From Eledone cirrhosa (taxonomy: Eukaryota), in NCBI GenBank assembly GCA_964016885.1, contig OZ024740.1:134292001-134356000 (forward strand): DNA of 64,000 bases. The letters run 5' to 3'. Both the position numbers and the translations under genes were made by a program. Positions 201 to 56,240 of this stretch are shown here, one piece after another. The stretch's first letter is position 1. Every line of letters starts with the position of its first letter. The notes beneath the pieces are model-generated. The model saw only the letters and a list, made by a program, of their open reading frames with translations. It was not told the origin of the DNA and searched no databases.

Positions 201-998
201 AAGGTACCACCTACTATTTCAGAAATATGATCAAATTGCTTAGTTGCAATTTATCAGTCACACCTATTTTACCGACACAGTGTATTTAAATCGATTTCTT
301 CTGAAATTTTAATGAATTAAGAGAGACGAACATAGTATCTATAAAGCATGTAGTTCGGTGCTCTAAAGTTGCTGGCAATTCAACGCCCTCATTCTAAATT
401 CTAATGAAAAATATCTTCAGGACAAGCAGAAAATTTTAAGACGGAATGATTACAAAGAAGCAGCTAAAATAAATACAAACCTCAAATTGTTGCTTGCTAC
501 ATTCTGATCAAAATTATAAAATCGATGATGACAGTCTAAGAAAGAAAATAGTTCGGCCATTCTCTTTTTATTTATAGTTATTTTATTATATTTCGTTTCT
601 GCCTTGTCTGTTTGTTGTTTGTTTATTCTTTTTATTTTTGCTAACAAAAGATAAAAATTAAACTGGCAAAGATTCATTTTGGTTCGTTAAAGGAAAAAGT
701 GTGTCAGCCTGTTACTCGCAATATATATGATTTGCCTACATTAAATTTAACATCTCAATTGATGCAACAATAATAACAGTTTACTATGTTGCAGACATAG
801 CTTGTTAATACCTAATATTACGTTCCCGATGAAACCTACGTTAGAAATGGTATTAATTAAGCAAAAGCAAATGTTAAAAAACGAGCATCAGTATACGAAA
901 AAAACCCATATAAAATCAATGTTTTCCTAAATGATATTACTGAGTACAAAATAGTCTCTATATGTGTAGTATGTATTAATGTGTTTATGCTTCTTTGT

Positions 999-2233
<1,235 letters not shown>

Positions 2234-3401: not shown

Positions 3402-3522
3402 ATAGGAAAAGCGTCAGGACCCCGACGGCTGAGCTCAGCCGTCGGGGTCCTGACGCTTTTCCTATTACTCACTCTCTGGTGCGTTATGGTCCACCTGGTA
3501 TTTTACCACACCTTCTTTGTTA
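3402..3522 (+). mobile_element. TA-flanked fold-back mini-element, copy A (PLE pLTR terminus)
   Basis: Perfect 64-bp palindrome at 3402-3465 centred on GAGCTC, plus a tail (ggtgcgttatggtccacctggt..taccaca) shared with copies B and C. Confidence 0.8.
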
Positions 3523-3526
3523 TGTG

Positions 3527-8481: not shown

Positions 8482-9180
8482 ATGGCTGCAATTCGATTTC
8501 GAGTAATGCCATCGCTTGCTAGGGATTTGCACACTCTTACACAGATTCTGTAACAATGGGGGGTCTCTCGCTGTAGATGTTATTTTCTTGCTTTCGTGCA
8601 CTTTCAAATGACGTTTCAGTCCACAAACTGAGACACACTTTTTTCCACACTCCTCACAAACAAAAATGCCAAACAACGCACAATTGATAGTGTCCCTGTG
8701 TACGTGGCTTCTCTGATAACTTCAAAGGCCCGCCCTACTTAGATATAACCGGCCACATTTTTTACGGATTAAATCAACCTGAATGGCAAGATATTCAGGC
8801 AAACCAAATTCAATGCCCTTGCGAGCACACTGCTTGAGTTTGAACATGCTCAACATTTTTTTTTTTCAAATTCACCCCTCCAATTATGCACTGCCTTTCT
8901 CCAGGAAAGTCGATCTAGAGCAAGGTTCTCCCAATCATTCTCCAAAATTTTCATCTTCCTCAGTGTACTTTTAATGCAATTCCTGAACCTCAATTTTGGT
9001 TTGTGCGCCAGTCGTTTACCTTCGACCAGTTCACCATACAGGAACTGCCTAAGAGTGCGATCATCATCCATTCTCACTACATGACCACTCCATCTTAATC
9101 GAAGTTGAAATATGAGAGACTCTATACTGGAAGCTCGAGTGCGATCGAGGAATTCCGTGTCACTCACGTACATTTTCCGT
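8482..9180 (-). mobile_element. RTE-clade (BovB-like) LINE 3' fragment
   Basis: SIESLIFQLRLRWSGHVVRMDDDRTLRQFLYGEL..GKR..KPKLRF..WENLALDRLSWRKAV, followed by a C2H2 finger FVCEECGKKCVSVCGLKRHLKVH. Confidence 0.85.
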
Positions 9181-12983: not shown

Positions 12984-15720
12984 TGTCATTTCGTTTAGCT
13001 CGGTTCTGTTTCTCTATTGCCGGGTTCAGGCCTTGAACCTAGAGCAATAGTTGTTTTCATTGTAGAGAGAGAACTCGTCTGAGAATGTGTGCTGTTCCCA
13101 GTAGCCCGATCTTCTGTAGCTCATATTTGCTGAGCTTGTAGGGAAGGACGCTAAGGTACAGGTCTGAGTAGTTGGATATTAATCCTAATGCTGCTATTAC
13201 CACAGGGATAGTGTTTGTAGTCATCCTCCACATGCAATTGATCTCTATTTCCAGGTCTTTTTATTTTGACAGTTTTTCCATTGTATTTATAGATGTATTC
13301 TTGTCAGCTGCTACGGAAATATTTATAAGGCTACATGTCCGATCTGTTCTGTTTTTTTATGATGATATCTAGTCTGTTGGCAGCGATTTCTCGATCAGTT
13401 ATCACAGGCATATCCCACAAGATGGATATGTTGCCCTTTTCCATGACTGTTTTTGGTTGATGTCCATACCATTTCTTAGAAGTATGGGCGTTATGAGAGC
13501 GGCAGAGCATCCAGTGCACATATTTGACAATGCGGCTGTGTCTTTCGTTTTTTACTAGTTTTGGACAACCGGAGATAACATGATCTTTGTGTTTGTAGGT
13601 AGCATATTCTGCATAGAGAGCTAGTCCCATCTTTCACTATCCTGTGTCTATAGGCCCGAGTATTTAGAGATTGGTCTTGTGCAGCAACTAAGAGTCCCTC
13701 AGTCTCTGAGCCAGGATAGTGAGCCAAGCTGATCGATATCATTGTCAGAAGGTCGTTCTGGGAATCTACCATGTAGTGGTTTTGCCTTCCATTCACGGTT
13801 TAGTTCGTCTGTTTGGAGTTTTTTTGCTTTTATCTTCACAGTCATAGCTAGCTGTGCAGCACTCTGTTATTGATTTTCTATGGGTATGTCTTGTTCTTGT
13901 TCCATGTTGCCTAATTGTAGCTTCTTAATTCGTTCATGCTTGAGTACAGACATAAGGAGTTCATCTCGGGTGTGGTGGAAGTGGCTACTCAATCCAATGG
14001 TTGCTGTTTTGTATGCAGCATCCAGTTGACGGAACCCCCTTCAAACTTCTCTCCTTGAGATATACAGCCTATGTGCATCGGCTTTAGGGTGGTGCATTTT
14101 TCCGTTCATAGTTTCCTTGTCTTAGTCCAACCTTTGTAGTTCTTGCGGGTTCCAGTTTATGATGTTAACGCTGTATGTTACCACTAGTACTGCTAGACTG
14201 TTAATGGCTTTGAACTTGTTGCAGGAGTTTTGCTCACTTTTTGTTACCAGTCTCACTCTCCTTATGTACTCCTACCGTGTCTTTTCCTTCATACTTGCAT
14301 GCTGGATTCTATATCCTTCATTAACTCAAATATATTGGTAGGACTCTTCGTTGTTAAGTTCCTTTATGGTAGTGTGTTGGTCTATGACAATATCTTTATG
14401 GTTAGAAAGCAACTCTCTCTTGAATCTGGCTTTTTCACACTTGTCCAATCCAAATTCCATATAGATGTCATCATTGAATTGTTTCACTGTGTGCAGTAAA
14501 CCTTCCAGCTGCCCATCATTGTTTCTAAATAGCTTGATATCATCCATATAAAGAAGGTGACTGTAATTTCTGTTGTCTATTTTATATCGATAGCCTGTCT
14601 TGTGCAGTAACTGACTTAACGAAGCAAGTGACATACAGAACAGCAAGGGGACAATGAGTTGCCTTGGAATATTCCACGATTAATCTTGATCTGTCTAGAT
14701 TCCAGTGGTCCGTTGTGGTGTTGAAGGACCATCGTAGTTTTCCAGTCTGTCATCATTGCCTTCAGGAAAGTTGTGATCTCGAGTGCTATGTGATAAATTT
14801 CTAGTGTCTTTATGATCCATGAATGAGGTACGATGTCGAATGCCTTCTTGCAGTCTATCCAGGCCATTGATAGGTTTTTCTTTTTTCTGTTTGCAGTTTT
14901 CCGTTATGAGTCTATTTAGCAGTAGCTGATCTTTGCACCCATAACTCTCTCGTTTACAGCCTTTTCGTTCAGATGGCAATGGATCTCCACAGACGAAGTA
15001 ATTGTATCTTGTTGGTAATCACTGATGTGAGGGATTTGTACATCGTTGAGATACATGTAATTGGTCTGCATTCATTCTTTTGTAGAAGATACGTTATGCC
15101 AGTTTTCATCCACTTTGGGACCTCTCTTGGGTTTGCTACAATCCTGGAGAATTCAGCAGACAAGGATTTATGGAATACATCCAGATGTTTCAGCCAGAAA
15201 TTCTGCACGCCATCTCTGCCCGGTGATTTCTGTTTTTATTTCTTGTGAGGTGATCTCATGGGTGTAAGCAGGGATTTCCAAATGTTCCAGCCATGTGACA
15301 TTGGAGTTGTGGTCTTGAACTTTTTCACAGATATTTTCCCAGAAGTGTTCAACCTCATCAAGCTCAGGTGGTTGCCTTATTTCAATGTTTCTTACCTAAC
15401 TCTCTGTAAGATCTTTTGGCATCTTCGGCAGAGATTTTGCTTTGTTTAAAGAAGTTAGCTCTTCTTTTGCATCTTCTTAGTCTCTGTGCCTTTGCCTGTA
15501 TCTTTTGCTTGATTGATTCGGCAATTTCTTTCCAGTCTGCTGTCCGGTTGGCCTTGTATTTCTTCCTCGGCCTAAAAAGCTTTTAGGGGTTGGTGTCAGT
15601 TCTTTTATCTATTTCGAATACGAGAGAGACATCTCTCCTCAACTCTATAATTTTGTTCTCCAGCTGTCTCTGCCATTTCGGTATTCCCTCTGTGTTTATT
15701 TTACAAACAAGTATTGCTTC
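12984..15720 (-). mobile_element. R4/Dong-clade non-LTR retrotransposon (RT + restriction-like endonuclease), decayed
   Basis: RPITCISTMYK, KGCKRESYGCKDQLL, AWIDCKKAFDIVPHSWI, RGIFQGNSLSP, SHLLYMDDIKLF, FGLDKC, ETEGLLVAAQDQSLNTR, CRIC..HVISGC, ILWD..ANRLDII, LGTAHILRRVLS. The 3' end abuts (TAA)n. Confidence 0.92.
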
Positions 15721-29269: not shown

Positions 29270-29500
29270 TTATTATTTCGGCCACTAGGGCCGAAACATA
29301 AAGGACATTACAAAAGCTGGGGCAGTTGGGTTTTACATAAAACGTGTAAAAAAAGAAGATAACAGGAAACAATTAAAAATATATTAATAGCAATAACATT
29401 TCCCAATCATGGTTGTACCACCCAGGGGTAATTTAGGAACCACCATAGATCTTAAACCACCCTAATCTCTAAGATTACCATCAGTTGGTGTCCCTCTCCT
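29270..29500 (-). mobile_element. Tx1-like LINE 3' UTR fragment
   Basis: tgtaaaacccaactgccccagc..tgtcctttatgtttcggccc..aataat resembles 12690-12760. Confidence 0.55.
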
Positions 29501-29507
29501 CTCTAAA

Positions 29508-30058
29508 ATGGGACAGGGAGAAGAAAACATGCACAGTAGTGGAAATTAGCTGCCCAGCAGATGACAATATAATATCAAAGATTAACGAAAAGGAGAATAT
29601 TTATGCAGAACTGATGAGAAATCTGCAGATACTCCACCCTGATTACACCTTCAGATTTATGCCTGTGATTATTGGAGCACTGGGGTATGTTAGTAACTGC
29701 CTCAATACAAATCTTGAGAAGCTAGGCTTCACAGGGACAGAAAGAACACAACTAGTTAGGAAACTACAAGTACAATCCATTAATGGAACAGTAAAAATAT
29801 GTAAAACATTCCAAAAATGTTGCATCTAATAACTGCATATACACATGTACAGATACAAAGCATATACACATGCACACATACAACTCAAAACATACACATC
29901 CACACATACAATAACATCCATATCTACACATGCAGACATGCAGACATAATCTACCTAGTTGATGTTGTGTAAATTCCAATGAGAGAGTCTTGTGTCTATG
30001 TTAGAAACCGACTCTCTCTCTATTGGTAAAACTTTGTGAAATTATAAAACCAGAAGAA
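29508..30058 (+). mobile_element. 5'-truncated RLE-bearing (R4-like) non-LTR element ending at (CATA)n
   Basis: WDREKKTCTVVEISCPADDNIISKINEKENIYAELMRNLQ..FMPVIIGALG (PD-D/ExK endonuclease C-terminus), stop at 29829, 3' UTR, then (TACA)n. Confidence 0.8.
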
Positions 30059-30246
30059 CATACATACATACAAACATACATACATACATACATACATACA
30101 TACATACATACATACATACATACATGCATACATGCATACATACATACATACATACATACATACATACATACATACATACATACATACATACATACTCGAA
30201 ATTAAGAGAAAGAGAAAACATACATACATACATACATACATACATA
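30058..30246. repeat. (CATA)n microsatellite containing a ~25-bp retroelement 3' stub
   Basis: The stub atactcgaaattaagagaaagagaaaac at ~30192-30219 is identical to 30819-30846. Confidence 0.9.
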
Positions 30247-30846
30247 GAAAGAATGTCATCTCGCTACTACCTCCCATGAGACACGATGGGATAGCTAGAA
30301 CCATCTGGAACGCACTTTGGAAAACAAAATTAACAACAAACGAGGAAGAATATATTGAGACAGATGGCACTAAGGAATACTGGTGGAACCTGAAAATAAA
30401 AACTGCCACCAAATTAAAGCACAACCTGCCTGATATTGTAGTTTGGGACCACACATTGAAAACGTGTTCTGTTGTGGAGATCAGCTGCCCACTTGATGTA
30501 AACGTTGTCAGAAAAATACAGGAGAAGGAGGACATCTACGGACCATTGATGAGGAGTTTACAAATCCAGTATCCAAGATACACCTTTAGCTTCATACCCA
30601 TCATTATTGGTGCTACGGGTTATATACCAACCCGCTTGGACCAAAGTATGACTGAACTTGGATTTGCGGACAAAAAGCGCAGCTCCCTAATTCATAGTCT
30701 ACAAATGGCTGCGATAGCTGGCACCTTCAAAATTTGCAAAACATTCTTGCGATTCAAGGGATGACAATTTCTTTTCTTTTACAACCTTGCCACCAGGAAG
30801 GTGGCCGGTCAAAAAAATATACTCGAAATTAAGAGAAAGAGAAAAC
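30247..30846 (+). mobile_element. Second 5'-truncated RLE-bearing (R4-like) element within (CATA)n
   Basis: RHDGIARTIW..WWN..KHNLPDIVVWD..VEISCPLDVNV..EKEDIY..IPIIIGATG is open to 30764. Flanked by CATA repeats. Confidence 0.85.
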
Positions 30847-33556: not shown

Positions 33557-33630
<74 letters not shown>

Positions 33631-33633
<3 letters not shown>

Positions 33634-33819
33634 CGGAGGAAATGTGGTAAGGAACCAGGTGGACCATAACGCACCAAAGTACTCAATACTTAGGGTAGTA
33701 GAGTGGGTAATAGGAACGAGTAGGACCCCGACGGCTGAGCTCAAGCCGTTTCGACGGCTAATTATGGACTGATTAGCCGTCGAAACGGCTTGAGCTCAGC
33801 CGTCGGGGTCCTACTCGTT

Positions 33820-33824
<5 letters not shown>
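33631..33824 (-). mobile_element. TA-flanked fold-back mini-element, copy B
   Basis: 53-bp perfect arms (33710-33762 / 33772-33824) with a 9-nt loop, ~80 bp tail, (TA)n on both sides. Confidence 0.85.
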
Positions 33825-33867
<43 letters not shown>

Positions 33868-33910
33868 GAGAAAACACAGGTAAGCATTAAGAGAAGGATT
33901 TTTATCCAGG

Positions 33911-34012
33911 TATTTACGACCGTTTCATTGGTAAGTGCAACCTTATATTGCTATACTGCAAATAGCAGCCACTCAATTATACTTGTTGTTCACAGTCCAA
34001 ATTTTCAAAATA
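33911..34012 (-). ncRNA. Type I hammerhead ribozyme (U3-A8 variant), inverted twin of 34853-34954
   Basis: Near-identical reverse-complement copy in the other pLTR arm, with the same core, GAAA and stems. Confidence 0.7.
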
Positions 34013-34852
34013 GTGAGTAAGTTACTCTTGAAATAGTTCTTAATATATAGAGAAAAACATTTATTTGGAATTGTATTTACTAGTATAGAGAGAGGAATTA
34101 GAAGGTGAGGGGACAAACGGAATAGTATAGAGAGAGAGGAAGGGGGAAGAGTTAGGAAGTAGAGTGACAAACTGAGATGGAGGGGGGGGTAGAGGTGGAA
34201 GGATTCCTTGATCAGTTTTGATATATAGACTTCATGTCGTAGAATGTAGTGAGTTAAAAAGAATTAAATTGATCATAATGGGAGGGATGGATAGAGAGAG
34301 AGAGAGGGGGGAGATATAAAGAGATAAATATATATATAAAAAATAAAGATAAAGATAATAATGACAAAAATAAAAGCAAAGAGGGGGGGAGAAAGAAGAA
34401 AAGAAAAGATAGCCAAAAAGGGGAGGGAAGGAAGGAAGAAAACGAAGAAATAGAAGAGGAATGAAGGAGAATGGAGGGATATAGGTATTGGTTTTTGTGG
34501 GTAATTAAAAGGGTTTAGATACAACAAGAGGGTATAAAGTCTAAGTATATACAGTTTGTCAGGTTAAGGGTTCGATTTGCACTTGTAGTGCGAAAACTTC
34601 TCTTTGAGTCTATGGTTACAATAAATTGATCTTTCGATTTTATTGTTGAGTAACTTATTCTTCGAACTCAAAATGTGGAACAGCTCAAGGTTACATAATC
34701 GACAGCTTCTCATACGACTCCGATATGGGGCGCGTTCGATAATTTTTTTCACTTCAGGATGTATTGGCGGTTACTTTCCTTCAGTTGCCAGGTCTTGTTT
34801 GCAAGAGTAGTTACATATATATTAACAACTATTTCAAAAGTAACTTACTCAC

Positions 34853-34954
34853 TATTTTGAAAATTTGGACTGTGAACAACAATTATAATTGAGTGGCTGC
34901 TATTTGCAGTATAGCAATATAAGGTTGCACATACCAATGAAACGGTCGTAAATA
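34853..34954 (+). ncRNA. Type I hammerhead ribozyme (U3-A8 core variant) in PLE pLTR
   Basis: Stem I TATT/AATA, core TTGAAAA (34857-34863), long stem II opened by TTGG/CCAA, GAAA at 34939, short near-palindromic stem III ACGGTCGT, predicted cleavage after GTA (34950). The first stem II pair is a T-T mismatch. Confidence 0.7.
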
Positions 34955-35169
34955 CCTGGATAAAATCCTTCTCTTAATGCTTACCTGTGTTTTCTCTTTT
35001 ATATTTTATACTTTATACTCCAAGATTGAACGGAATTCTTACAAACTTGTGGAGTTACCCCTAACCGTACATTGAAACCATCCAGGAAACTGGCTTTCTT
35101 AACCACGAACTGGATCGCAATAAGCAATTTTCTGCTTCCCTAACTATATATATATATATATATATAATA

Positions 35170-35379
35170 TAACGAAGGAAATGTGGTAAGGAACCAGGTG
35201 GACCATAATGCACCAAAGTACTCAATACTTAGGGTATTAGAGTGGGTAATAGGAACGAGTAGGACCCCGACGACTGAGCTCAAGCCGTTTCGACGGCTAA
35301 TTCTGGACTAAAATTTTTAGTCCAGAATTAGCCGTCGAAACGGCTTGAGCTCAGCCGTCGGGGTCCTACACGTTCCTAT
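35170..35379 (-). mobile_element. TA-flanked fold-back mini-element, copy C
   Basis: About 65-bp arms centred on 35314 (2 mismatches), tail almost identical to copy B, (TA)n on both sides. Confidence 0.85.
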
Positions 35380-35385
35380 ATATAT

Positions 35386-35466
<81 letters not shown>

Positions 35467-35470
<4 letters not shown>

Positions 35471-36610
35471 AATGAATAATAACAGGTAGACATCATAAAA
35501 AGGTAATTTATTCCGTGTGCTTAGAATTGTTTCTACGGTGGTACTGCAGCCTAGTTACGCTACGTGCAAATTCACAAGTACTTGCAGAACTCGAATATCC
35601 AATGCTGTGACCACTGTTTCCTCAGAGCAGAATGGTAAATGTACAATGTAAATACCCTTAAGTGGGGTTGTTGGGGAAGATAGAGTAGAAAAGGAAGAGA
35701 GAAAGGTAGGGAAGAGGGAGAGAAAAAGAAAGATATGCAGGGGTTGGAGAAGTAGGAGAGAGTGGCTTGTAGATATCTTAATCAAAATGTTATGGTAGGG
35801 GTTTTATTATACTGGTTACTTTTGGAGAGATGCGTTGATAGTTAAGGTCGGAATTATTTATTTCCCCAGAGGGCAGGTTCATAGATGTTGAGAGGGAGGT
35901 AGGTCAAAGGTGAGAGAGAGAGAGTGTAATGGATGTAGAGAGAGATAGGTAGAGAGGGGACAGACAAAGTATGTGTGATGTGTGAACTTTGGGTTTGTAG
36001 TAGTAATCTAGGAATTGCACTGAGTTACCATGTATAGTGATAAGCAGTGTATTGTCTTGTAGTGTGGGGGGAAGAGAAGGTTGTTAGCTAGAAAGTGGTG
36101 TTATAGTTACGGGTTCGAATGTTAAGTTATTTTATTGTGAGAGAATTTAGCTTTTAGTTTGTGGTTGCAGTATAATGATCGTTCAATTCTATCGTTAAGT
36201 AGTTTGTTTTTGGATTTTAATATGTAAAATAGCTCAAGGTTACATAATCTGAAGTACTTCAATCCACTCCGATATGCACTTGCGCTGGAAAGTATATCCC
36301 ATTTTAAGGTGAACTGTTGGTTGTGTTCATGGAGTTGCCAGATCTTGTTGGCGAGCGTGGTCACAAAACGGTGATTCGGATGTTTGATTGAGAATCGATG
36401 ACGGTACCAGCGAGATTTAAACGATGTGGTGGTAGATCCGATATAATACCATTTCTGGTCGTTCGATTCAACCGTGCATTGGTAAACAATGTTGGACTTT
36501 AGGCATTCATTCTTCAATGGACATCTTTCAGGTAGATGGCAGTTACATTCTTTGTTGTGGGTAGCGGGTATACCATGGATAGGTTGTGATAGCGGTACCT
36601 ATCCTATACC
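35467..36610 (-). mobile_element. 5'-truncated Penelope-like element (Nematis-like endonuclease), GIY-YIG remnant at 36122-36598 plus 3' UTR/pLTR
   Basis: Minus-strand translation CNCHLPERCPLKNECLKSNIVYQCTV..YYIGSTTTSFKSRWYRH..TTLANKIWQL..LCNLELFYIL..LLNDRIE..CNHK. Flanked by TA runs on both sides. Clade name is tentative. Confidence 0.88.
35510..35633 (-). ncRNA. Type I hammerhead ribozyme (canonical CUGAGGA core), slightly decayed
   Basis: Minus strand reads TGCT-CTGAGGA-aACAGTGGT...ACCACCGTa-GAAACAATTCTA-AGCA. Stem I is TGCT/AGCA. Stem III is one substitution from the palindrome ACAATTGT. Confidence 0.68.
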
Positions 36611-36626
36611 TAATATATATATATAC

Positions 36627-38213
36627 ATTGAACTAACACCACCAGCAGACCTAAAACTCAGGCCAATTATAGCAGGCCCTACATGTGAAACCCACAGACT
36701 TAGCAACTTTCTGGACATCCTACTGAAACCCTTTCTACAACATATACAGAGCTACATACGAGATGACCTTGACATGCTGAAACACCTCCCTAAAACAGTA
36801 AGTGCAAATACAATTCTTGTCTCCTTTGACGTAATAAACCTCTACACAAACATACCTCACAACTATGGAATAACAGCAGTCCAATACTGGCTTAACACAC
36901 ACCCATCAGAAATACCGACACGCATCAACACAGATTTTATCACTGACGGACTCCGCTTTATCCTACAAAATAACTACTTCACATTCAATGGTTCAACATA
37001 CAGACAAGTATCAGGTACGGCAATGGGCACGAAAGTAGCACCCACATATGCCAACCTAGTCATGGGATTCCATGAACAACAAATATACAGTCAGTCTCTT
37101 CTCTTATTTGGAGACTCTTTCCACACACACCTCAAAGCCAATTGGAAAAGATATCTAGACGACTGCTTTATCCTATGGCAAGAAGACATGAACTCACTTA
37201 CTACGTTTAAAAACATGATAAACAACATAGATAATAACATACAATTCACAATGGAATCCAATCCTAAGGAATTAGCCTTCTTGGATATTCTCATCTTTGT
37301 AATAGACGGGAAATTAGATACAGATATATTCTATAAACCCACAGATTCCAAACAATACCTCTTTTTCACATCAAGTCACCCAAAACATACAAAACTTAAC
37401 ATTCCTTACAATTTGGCCAAACGTATATGTACCATAGTATCAGATCCACCTAAACGGGAGCAAAGACTAAAGGAACTAAAAGACACCCTTATCTTAAGAG
37501 CCTTTCCACTTGAAATAATCAACAATGGAATAGACAGGGCAAAACACCTAAATCCCCATCAACTTAACAATCCAAAACAGAAAACCACACTAAACACCCT
37601 GCCATATGTATCCACTTTCAACCCCAGAAATACCGAAATGTTTGATCACCTACACAAAAACCTCCCCATCCTACTTAAAGATGTAAAAATGAAGTCTATT
37701 CTTGAAACACACAAGATCCTTAAAAGTAAAAGACAACCCAAATCACTTAAACGCATTCTCACTGGACCAAATATACCCAAACCAATCCTCAACCCTACAG
37801 TTACCAAATGTGGTAGAACAAACTGTGGAACGTGCCTCTACCTCACTGAAGGACAAACATTTACATTCAAAGATGGCCAAACATTTACAGTAAAAAACAA
37901 TTTCACCTGCAACTCGGAGAACTTGATTTACGCAATAACTTGCGGTGGGTGCAAACACAACTACATAGGACAGACGGGCACCTTATTACGCAAAAGAATG
38001 ACCATCCACCGCCAACAAATCCGGGACGCTAACACAAGAAAAATCCCCTTGAGCAGCCATATTGCGAACTGCGCAGGAATGACACTACCCAACTTTAAAA
38101 TCTTCCCCTTCTACAAGTGCTCAGATTCGTTCACACAGCAACAAAGAATAAACAAAGAAAATCTATTCCTTAACAAATTTAAACCAAAACTAAACGGGTT
38201 ATCACCCCAATAG
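36627..38213 (+). CDS. Penelope-like element (Neptune-type) reverse transcriptase + C-terminal GIY-YIG endonuclease, 5'-truncated, open for 528 codons
   Basis: RT motifs LRPIIAG, FDVINLYTNIPH, GTAMGTKVAPTYANLVM, WKRYLDDCFIL, LAFLDILI, SSHPKHTK. Cys-rich linker CGRTNCGTC. GIY-YIG region NLIYAITCGGCKHNYIGQTG..RKRMTIHR..E..KPKLN. The first 46 codons of the listed 574-aa ORF (36489-36626) are not part of it. Confidence 0.95.
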   Translation: MELTPPADLKLRPIIAGPTCETHRLSNFLDILLKPFLQHIQSYIRDDLDMLKHLPKTVSANTILVSFDVINLYTNIPHNYGITAVQYWLNTHPSEIPTRINTDFITDGLRFILQNNYFTFNGSTYRQVSGTAMGTKVAPTYANLVMGFHEQQIYSQSLLLFGDSFHTHLKANWKRYLDDCFILWQEDMNSLTTFKNMINNIDNNIQFTMESNPKELAFLDILIFVIDGKLDTDIFYKPTDSKQYLFFTSSHPKHTKLNIPYNLAKRICTIVSDPPKREQRLKELKDTLILRAFPLEIINNGIDRAKHLNPHQLNNPKQKTTLNTLPYVSTFNPRNTEMFDHLHKNLPILLKDVKMKSILETHKILKSKRQPKSLKRILTGPNIPKPILNPTVTKCGRTNCGTCLYLTEGQTFTFKDGQTFTVKNNFTCNSENLIYAITCGGCKHNYIGQTGTLLRKRMTIHRQQIRDANTRKIPLSSHIANCAGMTLPNFKIFPFYKCSDSFTQQQRINKENLFLNKFKPKLNGLSPQ

Positions 38214-38795
38214 AATTGTCATAAAATATAAACACACATACGCACGGAATCACTACTATTAAAGACCAGAGACCAATTCTGTAGAATCAGGTTTATTCGT
38301 TGACAGATCATGCCTTTGTGTGACCAACACATCCATGTTAAACCCTGCACGTGCACACACATATATCTATATATATATGCGCACACAGAATTCACCACTG
38401 TCGGTTGCGGGGCCCAATCTACATGAAGAACTCAATGTGATCAGAATGACTTGTATTTTAATTTCACTGTCCCAACTTCTTATATTATGGAAAAAATATA
38501 TGTGTCTGTATGTATATATATATATATATTTGGAGGCCATTTCTCTGTGTGTGGGTGTATGTATGTGTATATGTGTGTGTGTGTGTGTGTATATATATGT
38601 GTGTGTATGTGTATATATGTGTGTGTGTGTATGTTTATATGTGTGTATGTATATATATATGTGTGTGTGTGTGTATGTATGTGTGGGTGTGTGTGTGTGT
38701 GTATATATATATGTATATATATATATATGTGTGTATATATATATGTGTGTGTGTGTATGTATGTGTGTATCTGGATGTATGTGTATGTATATATA

Positions 38796-38840
<45 letters not shown>

Positions 38841-39301
38841 ATGTGTATATATGTGTGTGTATGTGTGTATGTATATGTATGTGTGTGTGTATGTATGTGT
38901 GTATATGTATATATATATATATATATATGTATATGTATATGTATATGTATGTATGTGTGGGTGAAGGTATGTGTGTATATATAGGTGTAAGTGCACTAAA
39001 TCCCTTTCTATCACGCTCCACTCTCCTACCCATCACAGGAAGATATGTGTATGTATATTGCTTCCACCCCCTCACTGACCAGCAGCTGGCCAGTTGACGA
39101 TTGCTATGCTAAATCTGACCTTTATAAAATAACCCACACCCCAAATAACTTCTCATTCACTACCAGAATGGGACACAGCAGTCAACCTGTTGTTGCTACC
39201 TAGATGAAAACTGCTATGAAATCCCACAATGAATTTTATACTTGAATTTTCAAATCTCAAGTTTTAACTCTTCGTATTATTAATTTTTCTTAATATTAAT
39301 C

Positions 39302-39349
39302 AACATTTGAAAAGATGGCTTTTGCAGACCCATCGAAACCGGTCATTTT
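39302..39349 (+). ncRNA. Minimal type I hammerhead ribozyme (U3-A8 variant) in the Neptune-type PLE 3' region
   Basis: aacat-TTGAAAA-GATGG(cttttgcagac)CCATC-GAAACCGGTC-atttt. Perfect 5-bp stem II, palindromic stem III ACCGGT, GUC site at 39342-39344, weak stem I. Confidence 0.75.
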
Positions 39350-39485
39350 TTATACCCTTTATTATTTCCTTACCTTATAAAATTATGTTTTTTCACAAAA
39401 AAGTATTCTGTCTCTTATATATTCCATGTGCCATTACCAACCTCAATTTTCTCTATAACCTTCGTTTTGTGTAGAAAATTACACT

Positions 39486-39542
<57 letters not shown>

Positions 39543-41726: not shown

Positions 41727-43758
41727 TTGTACTTGTACTTGTGGCAGCGTTCATATGGCGTCGGTTGAGCCGGCTTTATCGAAGGAATTCATCGTGCCCC
41801 TCACGAACGCAGATCAAGCACGGCGATCGGAGGCAATTTAATCAGTGAAGGCCGACCAATCACAACTCCAGCAAGGTGTACCGAACACACTTGGGCTCAT
41901 GTGGACTTTGATGTAACTTTTCACGTTGTACAACCACGTTTTTAGCTGTCCACTGCTTCGTTTGCGCCATCCTTGAAGTGATTGTGGATCAACTGCTTCA
42001 CAGACGAATTCACCCGGTTGACGCCGAAGTGCGTTGCCAAACCATCTTAGTCGACGTACGCGAAGGACGTTCCCGATCGGTTTGAAGTTGCAGCGCGAGC
42101 GAAACTCTGCATTCGATAGGAACACGATAGGAACACGATAGGAACACGAATGATGTGGCGACGAAAGAAATGATCAAATACTTCCAGTTAGTGCAGATCG
42201 CTTACTCTCCTGGGCCATGACTCATAAAAATAGAAGAGGATTGTATGAACAAGAGCTTGGTAGATTCGGATTTTCGTCCTCAACCTGATCTTTTGCGCAG
42301 ACCACAACTGAGATACAAGGAAAGGTATACGCCGTCAATGCGGACATTGATATCCTATTTTCCCTGTCCGAGGTTTTCCTCGTTGATAGTGATCGGCAGC
42401 TTTTAGGAGGGCGCAAAACTCACGGCCAATCTAGGAGGCGAACATTGGACATCGACAAAATTGTCTCCGAGGATGATGATGTCATCGGGATAATCCAGAC
42501 TCGGTTCAGTGAAGTTATGATCCACCGCGACGCCGGGAAAGCCAGCAACATCCTGATTTGTAATCCAGTCAACCGCATAGTTGAACAGCGTCGGGAACAG
42601 TACACAACCTTGCTGGACTCCAGACTTAATGTTGAAGAAGTCTGAATCTTAATCATATGTAGGAATCTTCGTTTGAGTGGAGCGATAATACGCCTCCAGA
42701 AGATTAAGCAGCTTTAGGGATATCCATCTCCTTTCATAACCTTTCAAAGTGCACTTCATTCAACGGAGTCAAAAGCTGCGGCAAAATCGCCGAAGCACAC
42801 AATTGTGCGCTGTTGGTAACACCAACGATGCTCAAGTGTTCTCATCAATGTGAAATTTGGTCTATGCATCCACGACCAGGGTGAAATCCGCACTGGTTTG
42901 GCCTTGTCCGGCGGTTGTACTCGTTGTGAAACCTTTTCAAAAAGACCTTCGCAGTGACGTCAATAAGACCTACACCTCGGTAGTTCTTGCAACATCGTCT
43001 ACCTCCGTTCTTGAAAAAAGGTAAGAGGACTGCATCACTCCAGTCATGGGGGAGAGATTCGGTATCCCAGACATGGGTGATGATTCGGTGGAACACAAGA
43101 ACAAACATCACAGCAGTGTTTAAAGATCTCTGAAGGTAAGCCCTCTTCTACAGTGGCCTTATTGTTCCTCAGCTTCAGGACTTCCTTTCGGACCTCCTCA
43201 GTAGTTGGGGCAGAATGAAGCAGCCATACGGCGTCAAAAGCTCATGGACGGTAGGAGGAGCTGATTGAAGACTTGCGTAGCTGAGTAGTTCAGCCAACGT
43301 TGCATGTGATCATTGATATCCGGGATGACATCACCAGTTTGACTCACGATGATCTCGCTTGAGGCTGCGGCAGACCTTGTACTGGAATGGAGAAGGCTGT
43401 GAAGCTTTCGTGAGTCACCAACCGATGCGACGAGTTACATGTCTTCTGTGACGCTGCGCCTGTAGGCGGTACGATCAGCACTAGCAGACGTAACCGTTTC
43501 TGGACGGAGACGTCGGGAATCACCATCACTACTGCAACGAACCTGTTTGGTTTTATCCGTTAGTGCGATAGTCTGGGCTGAGATCCAGTTTTTTCTGCAT
43601 CTTTTTGTAGTTCGAATCATTTTGGTTGTAGCTTCTTTAACGTTCTACTTGAAACATTCCCAAATGTCTTCAATGGAGAGATCTGTCGATTTGGAGAGTT
43701 TCACAACCACTGAACTGGCTGGACAGTTTGAGTCGGAAGCTATCCACAGTCTCGCTGG
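41725..43758 (-). mobile_element. RTE-clade LINE, 5'-truncated and decayed, with (ACAAGT)3 tail
   Basis: NYRGVGLIDVTAKVF, RTRPNQCGFHPGRGCIDQI, FGDFAAAFDSV, QGCVLFPTLFNYAVDWI, LDYPDDI, RRLRWFGNALRR. TA runs at both ends. Confidence 0.9.
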
Positions 43759-54755: not shown

Positions 54756-56142
54756 TCAAGTGTGATCAGCAAGTTCCGAGAACTATTCAAGTATTTGTAA
54801 AAGCAGTAGAGGATACGTCTGAGAGTCAAGGTTTTCTGCTAGCATGTGTAGTGTGCATATTGATATTATAAGCAAATATATATGCATGTAGATATGATAC
54901 GTCAAATAAAATCGTAATTGACAATATACACAGAAGACTGTAAAGTAATCCATGATACATTAAAAAAAGACGATATTGTATATAAACTCCATTAGGAGAA
55001 AATTAGTAACGGAAATATATGAATGTTTATTTAAGCAATCGGTAACCGGAAGTGTTGACATTTGAAAATTTTAAAGAAGTGAATCTTAAAATAAGCAACA
55101 AAATTATTTACATTTAATCAAGAATAACGAAATTTAGTAGATAAATTATGTAATATTCATTCATTATTTATTCAAAGTAATCCAACTTATTTTACAAACG
55201 AGATAAAAAATATATATTCTGGACGCAGTCCCGCACTCCTTACTTTATTGTAGTTTAGATTTAATATACTGCTATAGATTCTCTGCTATAAAAAGTGGCC
55301 TTGTACATAAAATATATCCACATATCGTAGATCGCTCCAAGTGTATTTCTTCTCGGCTTCCGTTTTTTGTTTCGTTCTCTCACAGAACCATATATTTCTA
55401 CAAATTCTTTTACACATCAACTATTACACCTATCACCACTTCACATAGTCTATTCGTTTGTTTGTGTGTGTGTAGTTGTTTTTTTTACGTAGATTCAATA
55501 ATTCAAAAGTATGTTGAGAGATTCATGTCTTCAATTCTTGCTTTACGTTCTTCCACCTTACTTACGATTCTAATTGCTTTAGGAAACGCATGGGAAGCTG
55601 CAATATCTCCTTTCCACTCCTGTTTGAATTCAATAGTGTATGTTGCCTATTGCTGAAATATGTTGATTACAAAGAATACTTCTACTATTAATCATTTCAA
55701 ATCACTGAGCTTTTGTTTAATGATTAAGTGAATCAGAGGTTTTCAAGGAAGGAGTGTCCAGAACTAAAACTTAACGTCAATTATATAGTAACCCTACCAC
55801 TTACCAAAGTGAAGTCGAGTTAACGAACAAGTATCTATACAAACAACCTACTCTGCCATTTTGAAAAGATTAGATGGTCAAGCCGGGGACGCCTTTGATC
55901 ATAGATCTGCACTGGTTATGGGGTAAATAACAATAATAGTGAGAGGTCCATTCAGTGTTTCGAATTGAAAGTTTATCGTTTTAATCTGCCATGCTCCTAT
56001 AACTTCTAATGAAGTCGTAGGAGTACCATCGTGACATTTTGAACTTGGTGGAGGCCATCTCTCAGCTGTTTTGACTACAGTCGATTTGTTGTTGTTATGT
56101 GTGCTTGTGTCAGTATGTATGTATGTGTGCGTGCGAAAGATT

Positions 56143-56240
56143 CGGGACCCGACGGCTAAGTTCTTGTCGTTTCAAAAACTAGTTCCAGACTAATTGCCAA
56201 AGGGTTTGACAGTTTTCTGGCTTTATCCTCAGAGATGGGG
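56143..56240 (-). ncRNA. Degenerate full-length hammerhead related to the TA-flanked fold-back family
   Basis: Minus strand CTGAGGA..aactgtcaaa-ccc-tttggcaatt..agtctggaactagttttt-GAAACGACAAGAACTTAGCCGTC-gggtccc aligns with agtccagaattagccgtc-GAAACGGCTTGAGCTCAGCCGTC-ggggtcc of the young copies. Confidence 0.55.

Follow-up and report, generated by a model that had tools for sequence, protein, structure and literature searches.

Core 3-8 pairing in the hammerhead motifs of Penelope-like elements from Eledone cirrhosa: a probable switch between related families and a multiplied lineage with a mismatched pair

This study concerns the hammerhead ribozyme motifs of Penelope-like elements (PLEs) in a 64,000-nt stretch of the Eledone cirrhosa genome (GenBank assembly GCA_964016885.1, contig OZ024740.1, positions 134,292,001 to 134,356,000; hereafter the window) and in related copies elsewhere, the genome-wide searches having covered 3.0 Gb. 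Ribozyme positions follow the customary hammerhead numbering. Natural cores with U3-A8 instead of C3-G8 were reported in 2011, together with a tolerated U10.1-U11.1 mismatch (Perreault et al. 2011, PMC3088659), and U3-A8 was reported in PLEs in 2014, with about 1,300 matches in Schistosoma (Cervera and De la Pena 2014, PMC4209133). The Hydra-clade hammerheads in File S2 of Craig et al. (2021, PMC8557442) are all C3-G8, many with an unpaired 10.1·11.1. The swap between C3-G8 and U3-A8 is already published, including in PLEs, and the new detail here is its Hydra-clade hosts; the fresher result is a family, named D, which was amplified with a mismatched pair and then regained the pair.

The window elements, which we assign to families A, B, C and D, resemble the Cercyon PLEs of Schistosoma mansoni (PMC4209133) in their type I hammerhead within the pseudo-long terminal repeat (pLTR), in U3-A8, in a short palindromic stem III, in inverted motif pairs 100-700 bp apart and in truncated copies. 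They differ from Cercyon in their hosts, which are of the Hydra clade and of Neptune/Nematis type, and in the 60-70 nt stem II insert and non-canonical 10.1·11.1 of families A and B, which are not a single bulge; moreover, the switch can here be placed on a tree, and the passages on Cercyon that bear on the comparison do not mention an amplified C3·A8 lineage. With the described Hydra-clade PLEs (PMC8557442) the Hydra-type families here share an anatomy with RWK, DKT, CxCx5C and CxxC/CxH motifs, (TA)n targets, a length under ~3.5 kb, a 3' hammerhead, a frequently unpaired 10.1·11.1 (U·U, for instance) and GUA/GUU triplets. Every Hydra row of File S2 has C3-G8 and a short loop II, whereas the cores of families A and D are U3-A8 or C3·A8, and long loop II inserts are found in A, B and two relatives, E and F. 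The natural core variants (PMC3088659) show the same covariation of C3-G8 to U3-A8 and the same U10.1-U11.1 mismatch, but they are scattered and mostly microbial, and the passages of that report dealing with them mention no lineage that reached high copy number while its 3·8 mismatch stayed uncompensated. The Poseidon element PAc of Anolis (PMC11167929) is also a PLE with a hammerhead, which cuts only with the 3-8 pair in place and with the element's protein present; it belongs to a different clade and provides a biochemical result, whereas family D provides a genomic record.

We consider it likely that the window sites are type I hammerheads, presumably slow cutters, which three high-copy PLE families carry at their 3' ends, that their 3-8 pair is favoured, that family A switched its pair, and that the mismatch in family D is survivable. 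Five insertions, each a 5'-truncated PLE, are stacked within (TA)n tracts at 33628-39489. The family A copy (33854-34817, minus strand) consists of a broken endonuclease remnant spanning ~34583-34817 according to its open reading frames (ORFs), a 3' untranslated region (UTR) and the pLTR end, and matches the longer copy L285 at 91%. Its motif S1 (33911-34012, minus strand), sense to the ORF, has the core UUGAAAA at 34008-34002 and A17 at 33915, with U3-A8, U10.1·U11.1, a 4-bp stem II and a self-complementary stem III. A second, inverted family A end (34816-35004, plus strand) contains S2 (34853-34954, plus strand; core from 34857, A17 at 34950); as S1 and S2 form the two arms of one 150-nt inverted repeat (97%), both belong to a single family, and S2 runs antisense to the ORF. 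The family B copy (35462-36598, minus strand; 95% to L287) retains an open frame for linker and GIY-YIG endonuclease (36598-36122; Pfam GIY-YIG, E 3.6e-05), 3' UTR and pLTR end, and carries S3 (35510-35633, minus strand) with the C3-G8 core CUGAGGA at 35625-35619 and A17 at 35522. The family C copy (36624-39489, plus strand; 92% to L280) has a frame for reverse transcriptase (RT) and GIY-YIG up to 38213 (Pfam RVT_1, E 3.2e-07; GIY-YIG, E 2e-05), followed by a microsatellite-rich 3' UTR and the pLTR end with S4 (39302-39349, plus strand). This minimal type I motif has the core UUGAAAA at 39307 and C17 at 39344, with U3-A8, G10.1-C11.1, a 5-bp stem II, a palindromic ACCGGU stem III and a weak stem I of 2 bp, a C·U mismatch and 2 bp, the mismatch being common to the fetched family C copies.

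All four sites fit the core Y3 U4 G5 A6 N7 R8 A9 ... G12 A13 A14 with A15.1-U16.1 and H17. The core positions confirm the four motifs and cores that an earlier note on this DNA had described; however, the sites represent three families, not four, the S3 copy is damaged at stem III, and the several comparisons that the note drew in the window come down to just one, not three, two sites being of the same family. Both cuts that it had foreseen, 3' of C 39344 in S4 and 3' of A 34950 in S2, are at the positions predicted by the model, but the latter would lie on the antisense strand, in a plus-strand transcript only, the sense-strand cut of family A being predicted 3' of A 33915. In family B the predicted cut corresponds to 3' of A 35522. 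A type I descriptor recovered S1, S2 and S4, against 0.003 matches on average in 300 shuffles of the 6.1-kb region, but missed S3 because its window copy has C15.2·C16.2. Three positions of this copy depart from the family majority, and one of these departures disrupts the 15.2-16.2 pair; G16.2 is present in 33 of 36 aligned family B copies as well as in 26 of 27 parsed sites (of 28) from other B subfamilies; the S3 window copy is probably inactive. The stems can be drawn for A, C, D, E and the majority type of B; A and B have different sequences in stems I and III, but the pairing is preserved. Position 10.1·11.1 is not the usual pair in A (U·U) and B (A·G, U·G or C·G, depending on the subfamily), and the canonical G10.1-C11.1 is present in families C and D; this pair is no strict requirement, U·U being known from published motifs. 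The copies in the window probably lead nowhere, as S1 and S2 would pair mutually in read-through RNA, S3 is mutated, and all three elements are truncated.

The different cores of family B (CUGAGGA) and families A and C (UUGAAAA), noticed from single copies, are borne out family-wide. With genome-wide patterns for A and B that left positions 3, 7, 8 and 10.1 free, and listings counted by eye, family A (668 matches) had U3-A8 in 96 and U10.1 in 99 of the first 100 listed, and family B (1279 matches) had C3-G8 in 99 of the first 100 listed, its positions 7 and 10.1 varying by subfamily. Family C displayed the same U3-A8 core in 45/45 matches picked by similarity. We also searched 120 evenly placed 10-kb stretches (1.2 Mb) with a descriptor allowing any base at N3, N7 and N8, which yielded 123 motifs: 92 C3-G8, 20 U3-A8 and 11 other, i.e., 112 with a paired 3-8. 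Ten shuffles of the sample gave 9.9 matches in all, 0.2 C-G and 0.8 U-A, and the first 80 stretches contained 87 motifs (68 C-G, 14 U-A, five other). By majority, the 14 families found at at least two loci comprised ten C-G and four U-A, none mixed; this all-paired split would be a 1 in 1001 event if dealt at random, but the families are kin and do not count as 14 independent events. The descriptor excluded G17 by design, so that the absence of G at position 17 carries no information, and it did not pick up family D. Positions 3 and 8 thus do covary, both among families and across the genome. This suggests that selection favours a Watson-Crick 3-8 pair, with lineages sitting at either C3-G8 or U3-A8. 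Taken family by family, the pairing held in A, B and C but was absent from 27 of 100 copies of D, which have C3·A8.

The direction of the switch could be read from the relatives of A and B. The endonucleases of these two families, correctly described as homologous in the earlier note, share ~68-70% amino-acid identity in intact copies and 72% DNA identity in the window. An RT tree that took family C as its outgroup did not resolve, and a tree of 17 RT fragments joined A, B, E and F in one starred clade (100/99). Family E is C3-G8, and so is family F in the four copies retaining the 5' core; loop II of F is in part the same as that of A. Since both relatives have C3-G8, the U3-A8 pair of family A is probably derived, and a single replacement of C3-G8 by U3-A8 on the branch of A would explain this most simply.

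Family D departs from this pattern. Its core pattern has 6693 genome matches, and the first 100 listed, which all lie in one 63-Mb part of one chromosome, include 73 U3-A8 and 27 mismatched C3·A8 cores, corresponding to a 95% interval of ~1,200-2,500 C3·A8 copies if those 100 are typical. This is far above mutation noise. G8 is present in only 27 of the 6693 cores (six with C3, 21 with U3), and A8G opposite U3 leaves a U·G wobble; the D copies with CUGAGGA had been considered as a compensatory subfamily, which was dropped because this is the level of point mutation. A tree with positions 3 and 8 masked, comprising the 58 of 81 collected copies that were long enough upstream, forms a ladder from older U3-A8 groups through three C3·A8 subfamilies to younger U3-A8 groups, along which mean within-group divergence declines (5.4, 3.4, 2.8, 2.1, 1.9 and 0.8%). 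Several of its branches are starred, and other D trees show the same shape. Forcing the C3 copies into one clade was rejected (log likelihood 99.9 lower, P of the approximately unbiased test 2e-68) in a test that held 21 C3 copies, chosen by their base at position 3, with two strays omitted after earlier trees were inspected; these C3·A8 strays, L233 and L236, are single mutants within U3 groups. Many D copies were fetched by core type and the root of the ladder was assumed from the most divergent group, but with a root inside the C3 grade the C3·A8 sources would be productive all the same.

Throughout this series the rest of the ribozyme was conserved. Between successive D subfamily majorities, the core and stems acquired 3 changes compared with 115 in the flanks and loop II; without the columns fixed by the search pattern there were 3 changes versus 15 expected (P 1e-4), and in the steps touching C3·A8 1 versus 9.6 (P 4e-4). 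With only loop II and the 3' flank as control, P was 3e-3 for all steps and 2e-3 for the C3·A8 steps. We infer that D source elements multiplied with C3·A8 over three subfamilies in succession before U3-A8 was restored. As they did so with the rest of the ribozyme conserved, the 3-8 pairing appears to be favoured but not obligatory. We lean slightly towards the view that the three C3·A8 waves spread while purifying selection held the stems and the other core bases, and then reverted, that the C·A opposition either supports useful cleavage in a monomeric, protein-assisted ribozyme or the fold is kept for a non-cutting job, and that such a state may be a bridge for crossings like that of family A. 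It could be argued instead that all productive lineages need the 3-8 pair and that the C3·A8 copies are passengers, copied in trans or by way of hybrid dimers with intact partners, or an artefact of recombination between subfamilies. The nearly fixed paired cores of A, B and C and the two single-mutant strays would suit this explanation, and dimer cleavage permits complementation in principle (PMC4209133). We regard it as very improbable, because the C3·A8 subfamilies stand on the trunk, several branches of it starred, from which the youngest U3-A8 subfamilies arise; moreover, the long C3·A8 copies L239 and L241 hold an RT-endonuclease frame, though interrupted, and the hairpin stem III of the complete D motifs should work as a monomer. 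The earlier note had taken the compensatory change to mean that self-cleavage was selected. The polarised A/B switch fits selection on the active-site pair, but as a rule the claim is too strong, because D multiplied with C3·A8 and hammerhead mutants of the Poseidon element PAc inserted in vitro without any effect of the mutation (PMC11167929).

If the sites are indeed hammerheads, each family's ribozyme would slowly cut the transcript close to where the unit ends on its 3' side, thereby trimming or releasing unit-length element transcripts. Families A, B and C would cut as dimers and family D as a monomer; the self-complementary stem III of A, C and E, with self-duplex energies of -5.8, -8.3 and -6.4 kcal/mol, fits the dimer model of PMC4209133. 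The element's protein could perhaps help the cutting, as for PAc (PMC11167929), and weak residual cleavage in the C3·A8 elements of family D would most likely be enough for retrotransposition.

Several observations, including the in vitro behaviour of the PAc mutants and the confinement of the counted C3·A8 share of D to one chromosomal region, weigh against this reading. The hammerhead is not the minimum-energy monomer fold at any of the four window sites (z -1.13 to 0.21); forcing it costs 5.0-5.8 kcal/mol in S1-S3 and 9.7 kcal/mol in S4, where the core pairs with the region of its own cleavage site. In family A, U10.1·U11.1 is combined with U3 and A17, and pairing of U3 with A17 could trap the site in a manner analogous to the C3-G17 trap proposed for hammerheads (PMC3884650). 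The Rfam hammerhead models gave no match at E up to 1 in the window or up to 10 in the region, and the scans returned just microsatellite and hairpin noise. For the direction of the switch, the order within the A/B/E/F clade depends on 87/81 (A with F), and the copies of F are old, with C at position 4 in three of the four that retain a 5' core.

Such observations could mean that some motifs of the window, most of all S4, have decayed or resemble a hammerhead by chance, and that no copy of them cuts any longer. The interrupted stem I of S4, its far more stable competing fold, the mutated S3 copy and the base pairing expected between S1 and S2 in a read-through transcript would all agree with this, but the abundant and young family C retains a complete core as well as a palindromic stem III, and the chance level of 0.003 matches per region is low, so we find this explanation improbable. 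The main rival is a non-catalytic role, in which the fold is kept for protein binding, positioning of the RT template or RNA stability, cleavage is dispensable, and the 3-8 pair is a structural preference or a relic. Family D multiplied with a mismatched 3-8 while conserving its stems, and in addition to the unaffected PAc insertion, no reads ended at the PAc cut site (PMC11167929), Naiads thrive without canonical hammerheads (PMC8557442), and the in vitro activity of PLE motifs was low (PMC4209133). On the other hand, D returned to U3-A8, a young U3-A8 copy from its youngest subfamily has the hammerhead as its minimum-energy fold, and 112 of the 123 sampled motifs pair 3-8, which is known to be important in the active site. 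This alternative seems unlikely to us, and we retain slow cutting as the preferred reading.

The clade assignment was made by motifs as defined in PMC8557442, the RT tree comprising only families of this genome. All the Hydra-clade motifs were found in family B (L286, L287), which has a 784-codon open frame in L287 with RWK, DKT, YRDD, CxCx5C, CxxC and CxH. Family D has a 786-codon open frame in L278 with DKT, RWR, CxCx5C, CxxC and CxH. The coding region of family A is known from interrupted pieces only (L275, L285), of which L275 has DKT, CxCx5C, CxxC and CxH, and the N-terminus with RWK was not seen. A single ORF that combines RT with GIY-YIG at its C-terminal end is present in longer copies of B and D and in the window copy of C, the elements have the PLE features of a pLTR with hammerhead, 5' truncation and an inverted 5' copy, and the (TA)n targets of A, B and D fit the Hydra clade. 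By these motifs A, B and D are Hydra-clade PLEs; an assignment of A and B to Nematis, based on the linker, was dropped as the motifs fit the Hydra definition. Family C, with DKG and YLDD in L280, a Cx4CxxC linker at 37809 and a CxxC..H..H endonuclease, is compatible with either Neptune or Nematis, as DKG and a Cx2-5CxxC linker are shared by both (PMC8557442); the label Neptune-type given in the earlier note is thus compatible with the motifs, as Nematis would be. A first look gave 1421 candidate copies of family A and 995 of family C, which is young and abundant, 15 of the 43 matches listed being 100% identical at full score. Among the other Hydra-like endonuclease remnants, most could not be tied to any hammerhead. 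L079 (about 950-1000, plus strand) and L032 have a hammerhead-like motif downstream of a Hydra-like endonuclease, with the 5' core C-A-G-A-A-G-A, i.e., A at position 4, in both copies.

The remaining insertions of the window are two ends of family D, both flanking family A. The first (33628-33822), flanked by (TA)n, is 5'-truncated with a short inverted copy and has only the 3' half of the hammerhead, on both strands; on the plus strand this half comprises GAAA from 33782, the stem III hairpin, C17 at 33804 and the 3' arm of stem I. It is 94-95% identical to the ends of the long D copy with the 786-codon frame. The second (35167-35379) is likewise truncated and inverted with half hammerheads. 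The complete D hammerhead is present in other genomic copies, and the 3' parts of the window copies, both without a core, match subfamilies at the transition from C3·A8 to U3-A8. Each D end is a long perfect hairpin of a truncated pLTR and its own inverted copy, and these hairpins cause spurious microRNA-precursor matches in Rfam. Older D-related pieces were seen at 3425-3523 and near 56100-56200 (minus strand). Other retrotransposon frame remnants, judged by eye from the ORF list, lie at 8850-9179, 13331-15018, 29473-30764 and 41838-43147 and are pieces of RT and restriction-like endonuclease resembling long interspersed nuclear elements. Outside the window, an unrelated frame of non-LTR type lies between two inverted family A ends (L284, 2275-4384).

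In the genome sample, with family D not counted, hammerhead motifs occurred about once per 10 kb and fell into 43 clusters; in many of them 10.1·11.1 is non-canonical (C·A, U·U, A·G). The loci L137 (plus strand, 5598), L151 (minus, 8461), L153 (minus, 5808) and L329 share the same palindromic stem III and a stem II region of 101-105 nt, with one U3-A8 (seen once) and three C3-G8 cores; no endonuclease could be linked to this set, which possibly represents a second 3-8 switch. The U3-A8 motifs predicted to cut after A17, in which U3 could pair with A17 as in the trap discussed above, include those of family A, the L306/L113 family, L137 and L141. On the minus strand of L140 (G000:C3:190000001-190010000), eleven identical C3-G8 hammerheads are spaced by ~310 nt, an array that by its layout is of the tandem, non-LTR retrozyme type.

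Families with U3-A8 are common in this genome, as they account for 20 of the 112 paired motifs in the sample in addition to family D with at least 6,693 cores. Since the published Hydra-clade table contains only C3-G8 (PMC8557442), standard descriptors would undercount such elements. The literature searched yielded no amplified C3·A8 lineage, which is not proof of its absence. As a dated natural series of near-identical RNAs passing from U3-A8 through C3·A8 and back to U3-A8, family D bears on whether PLEs need the cutting of their hammerheads in order to move.

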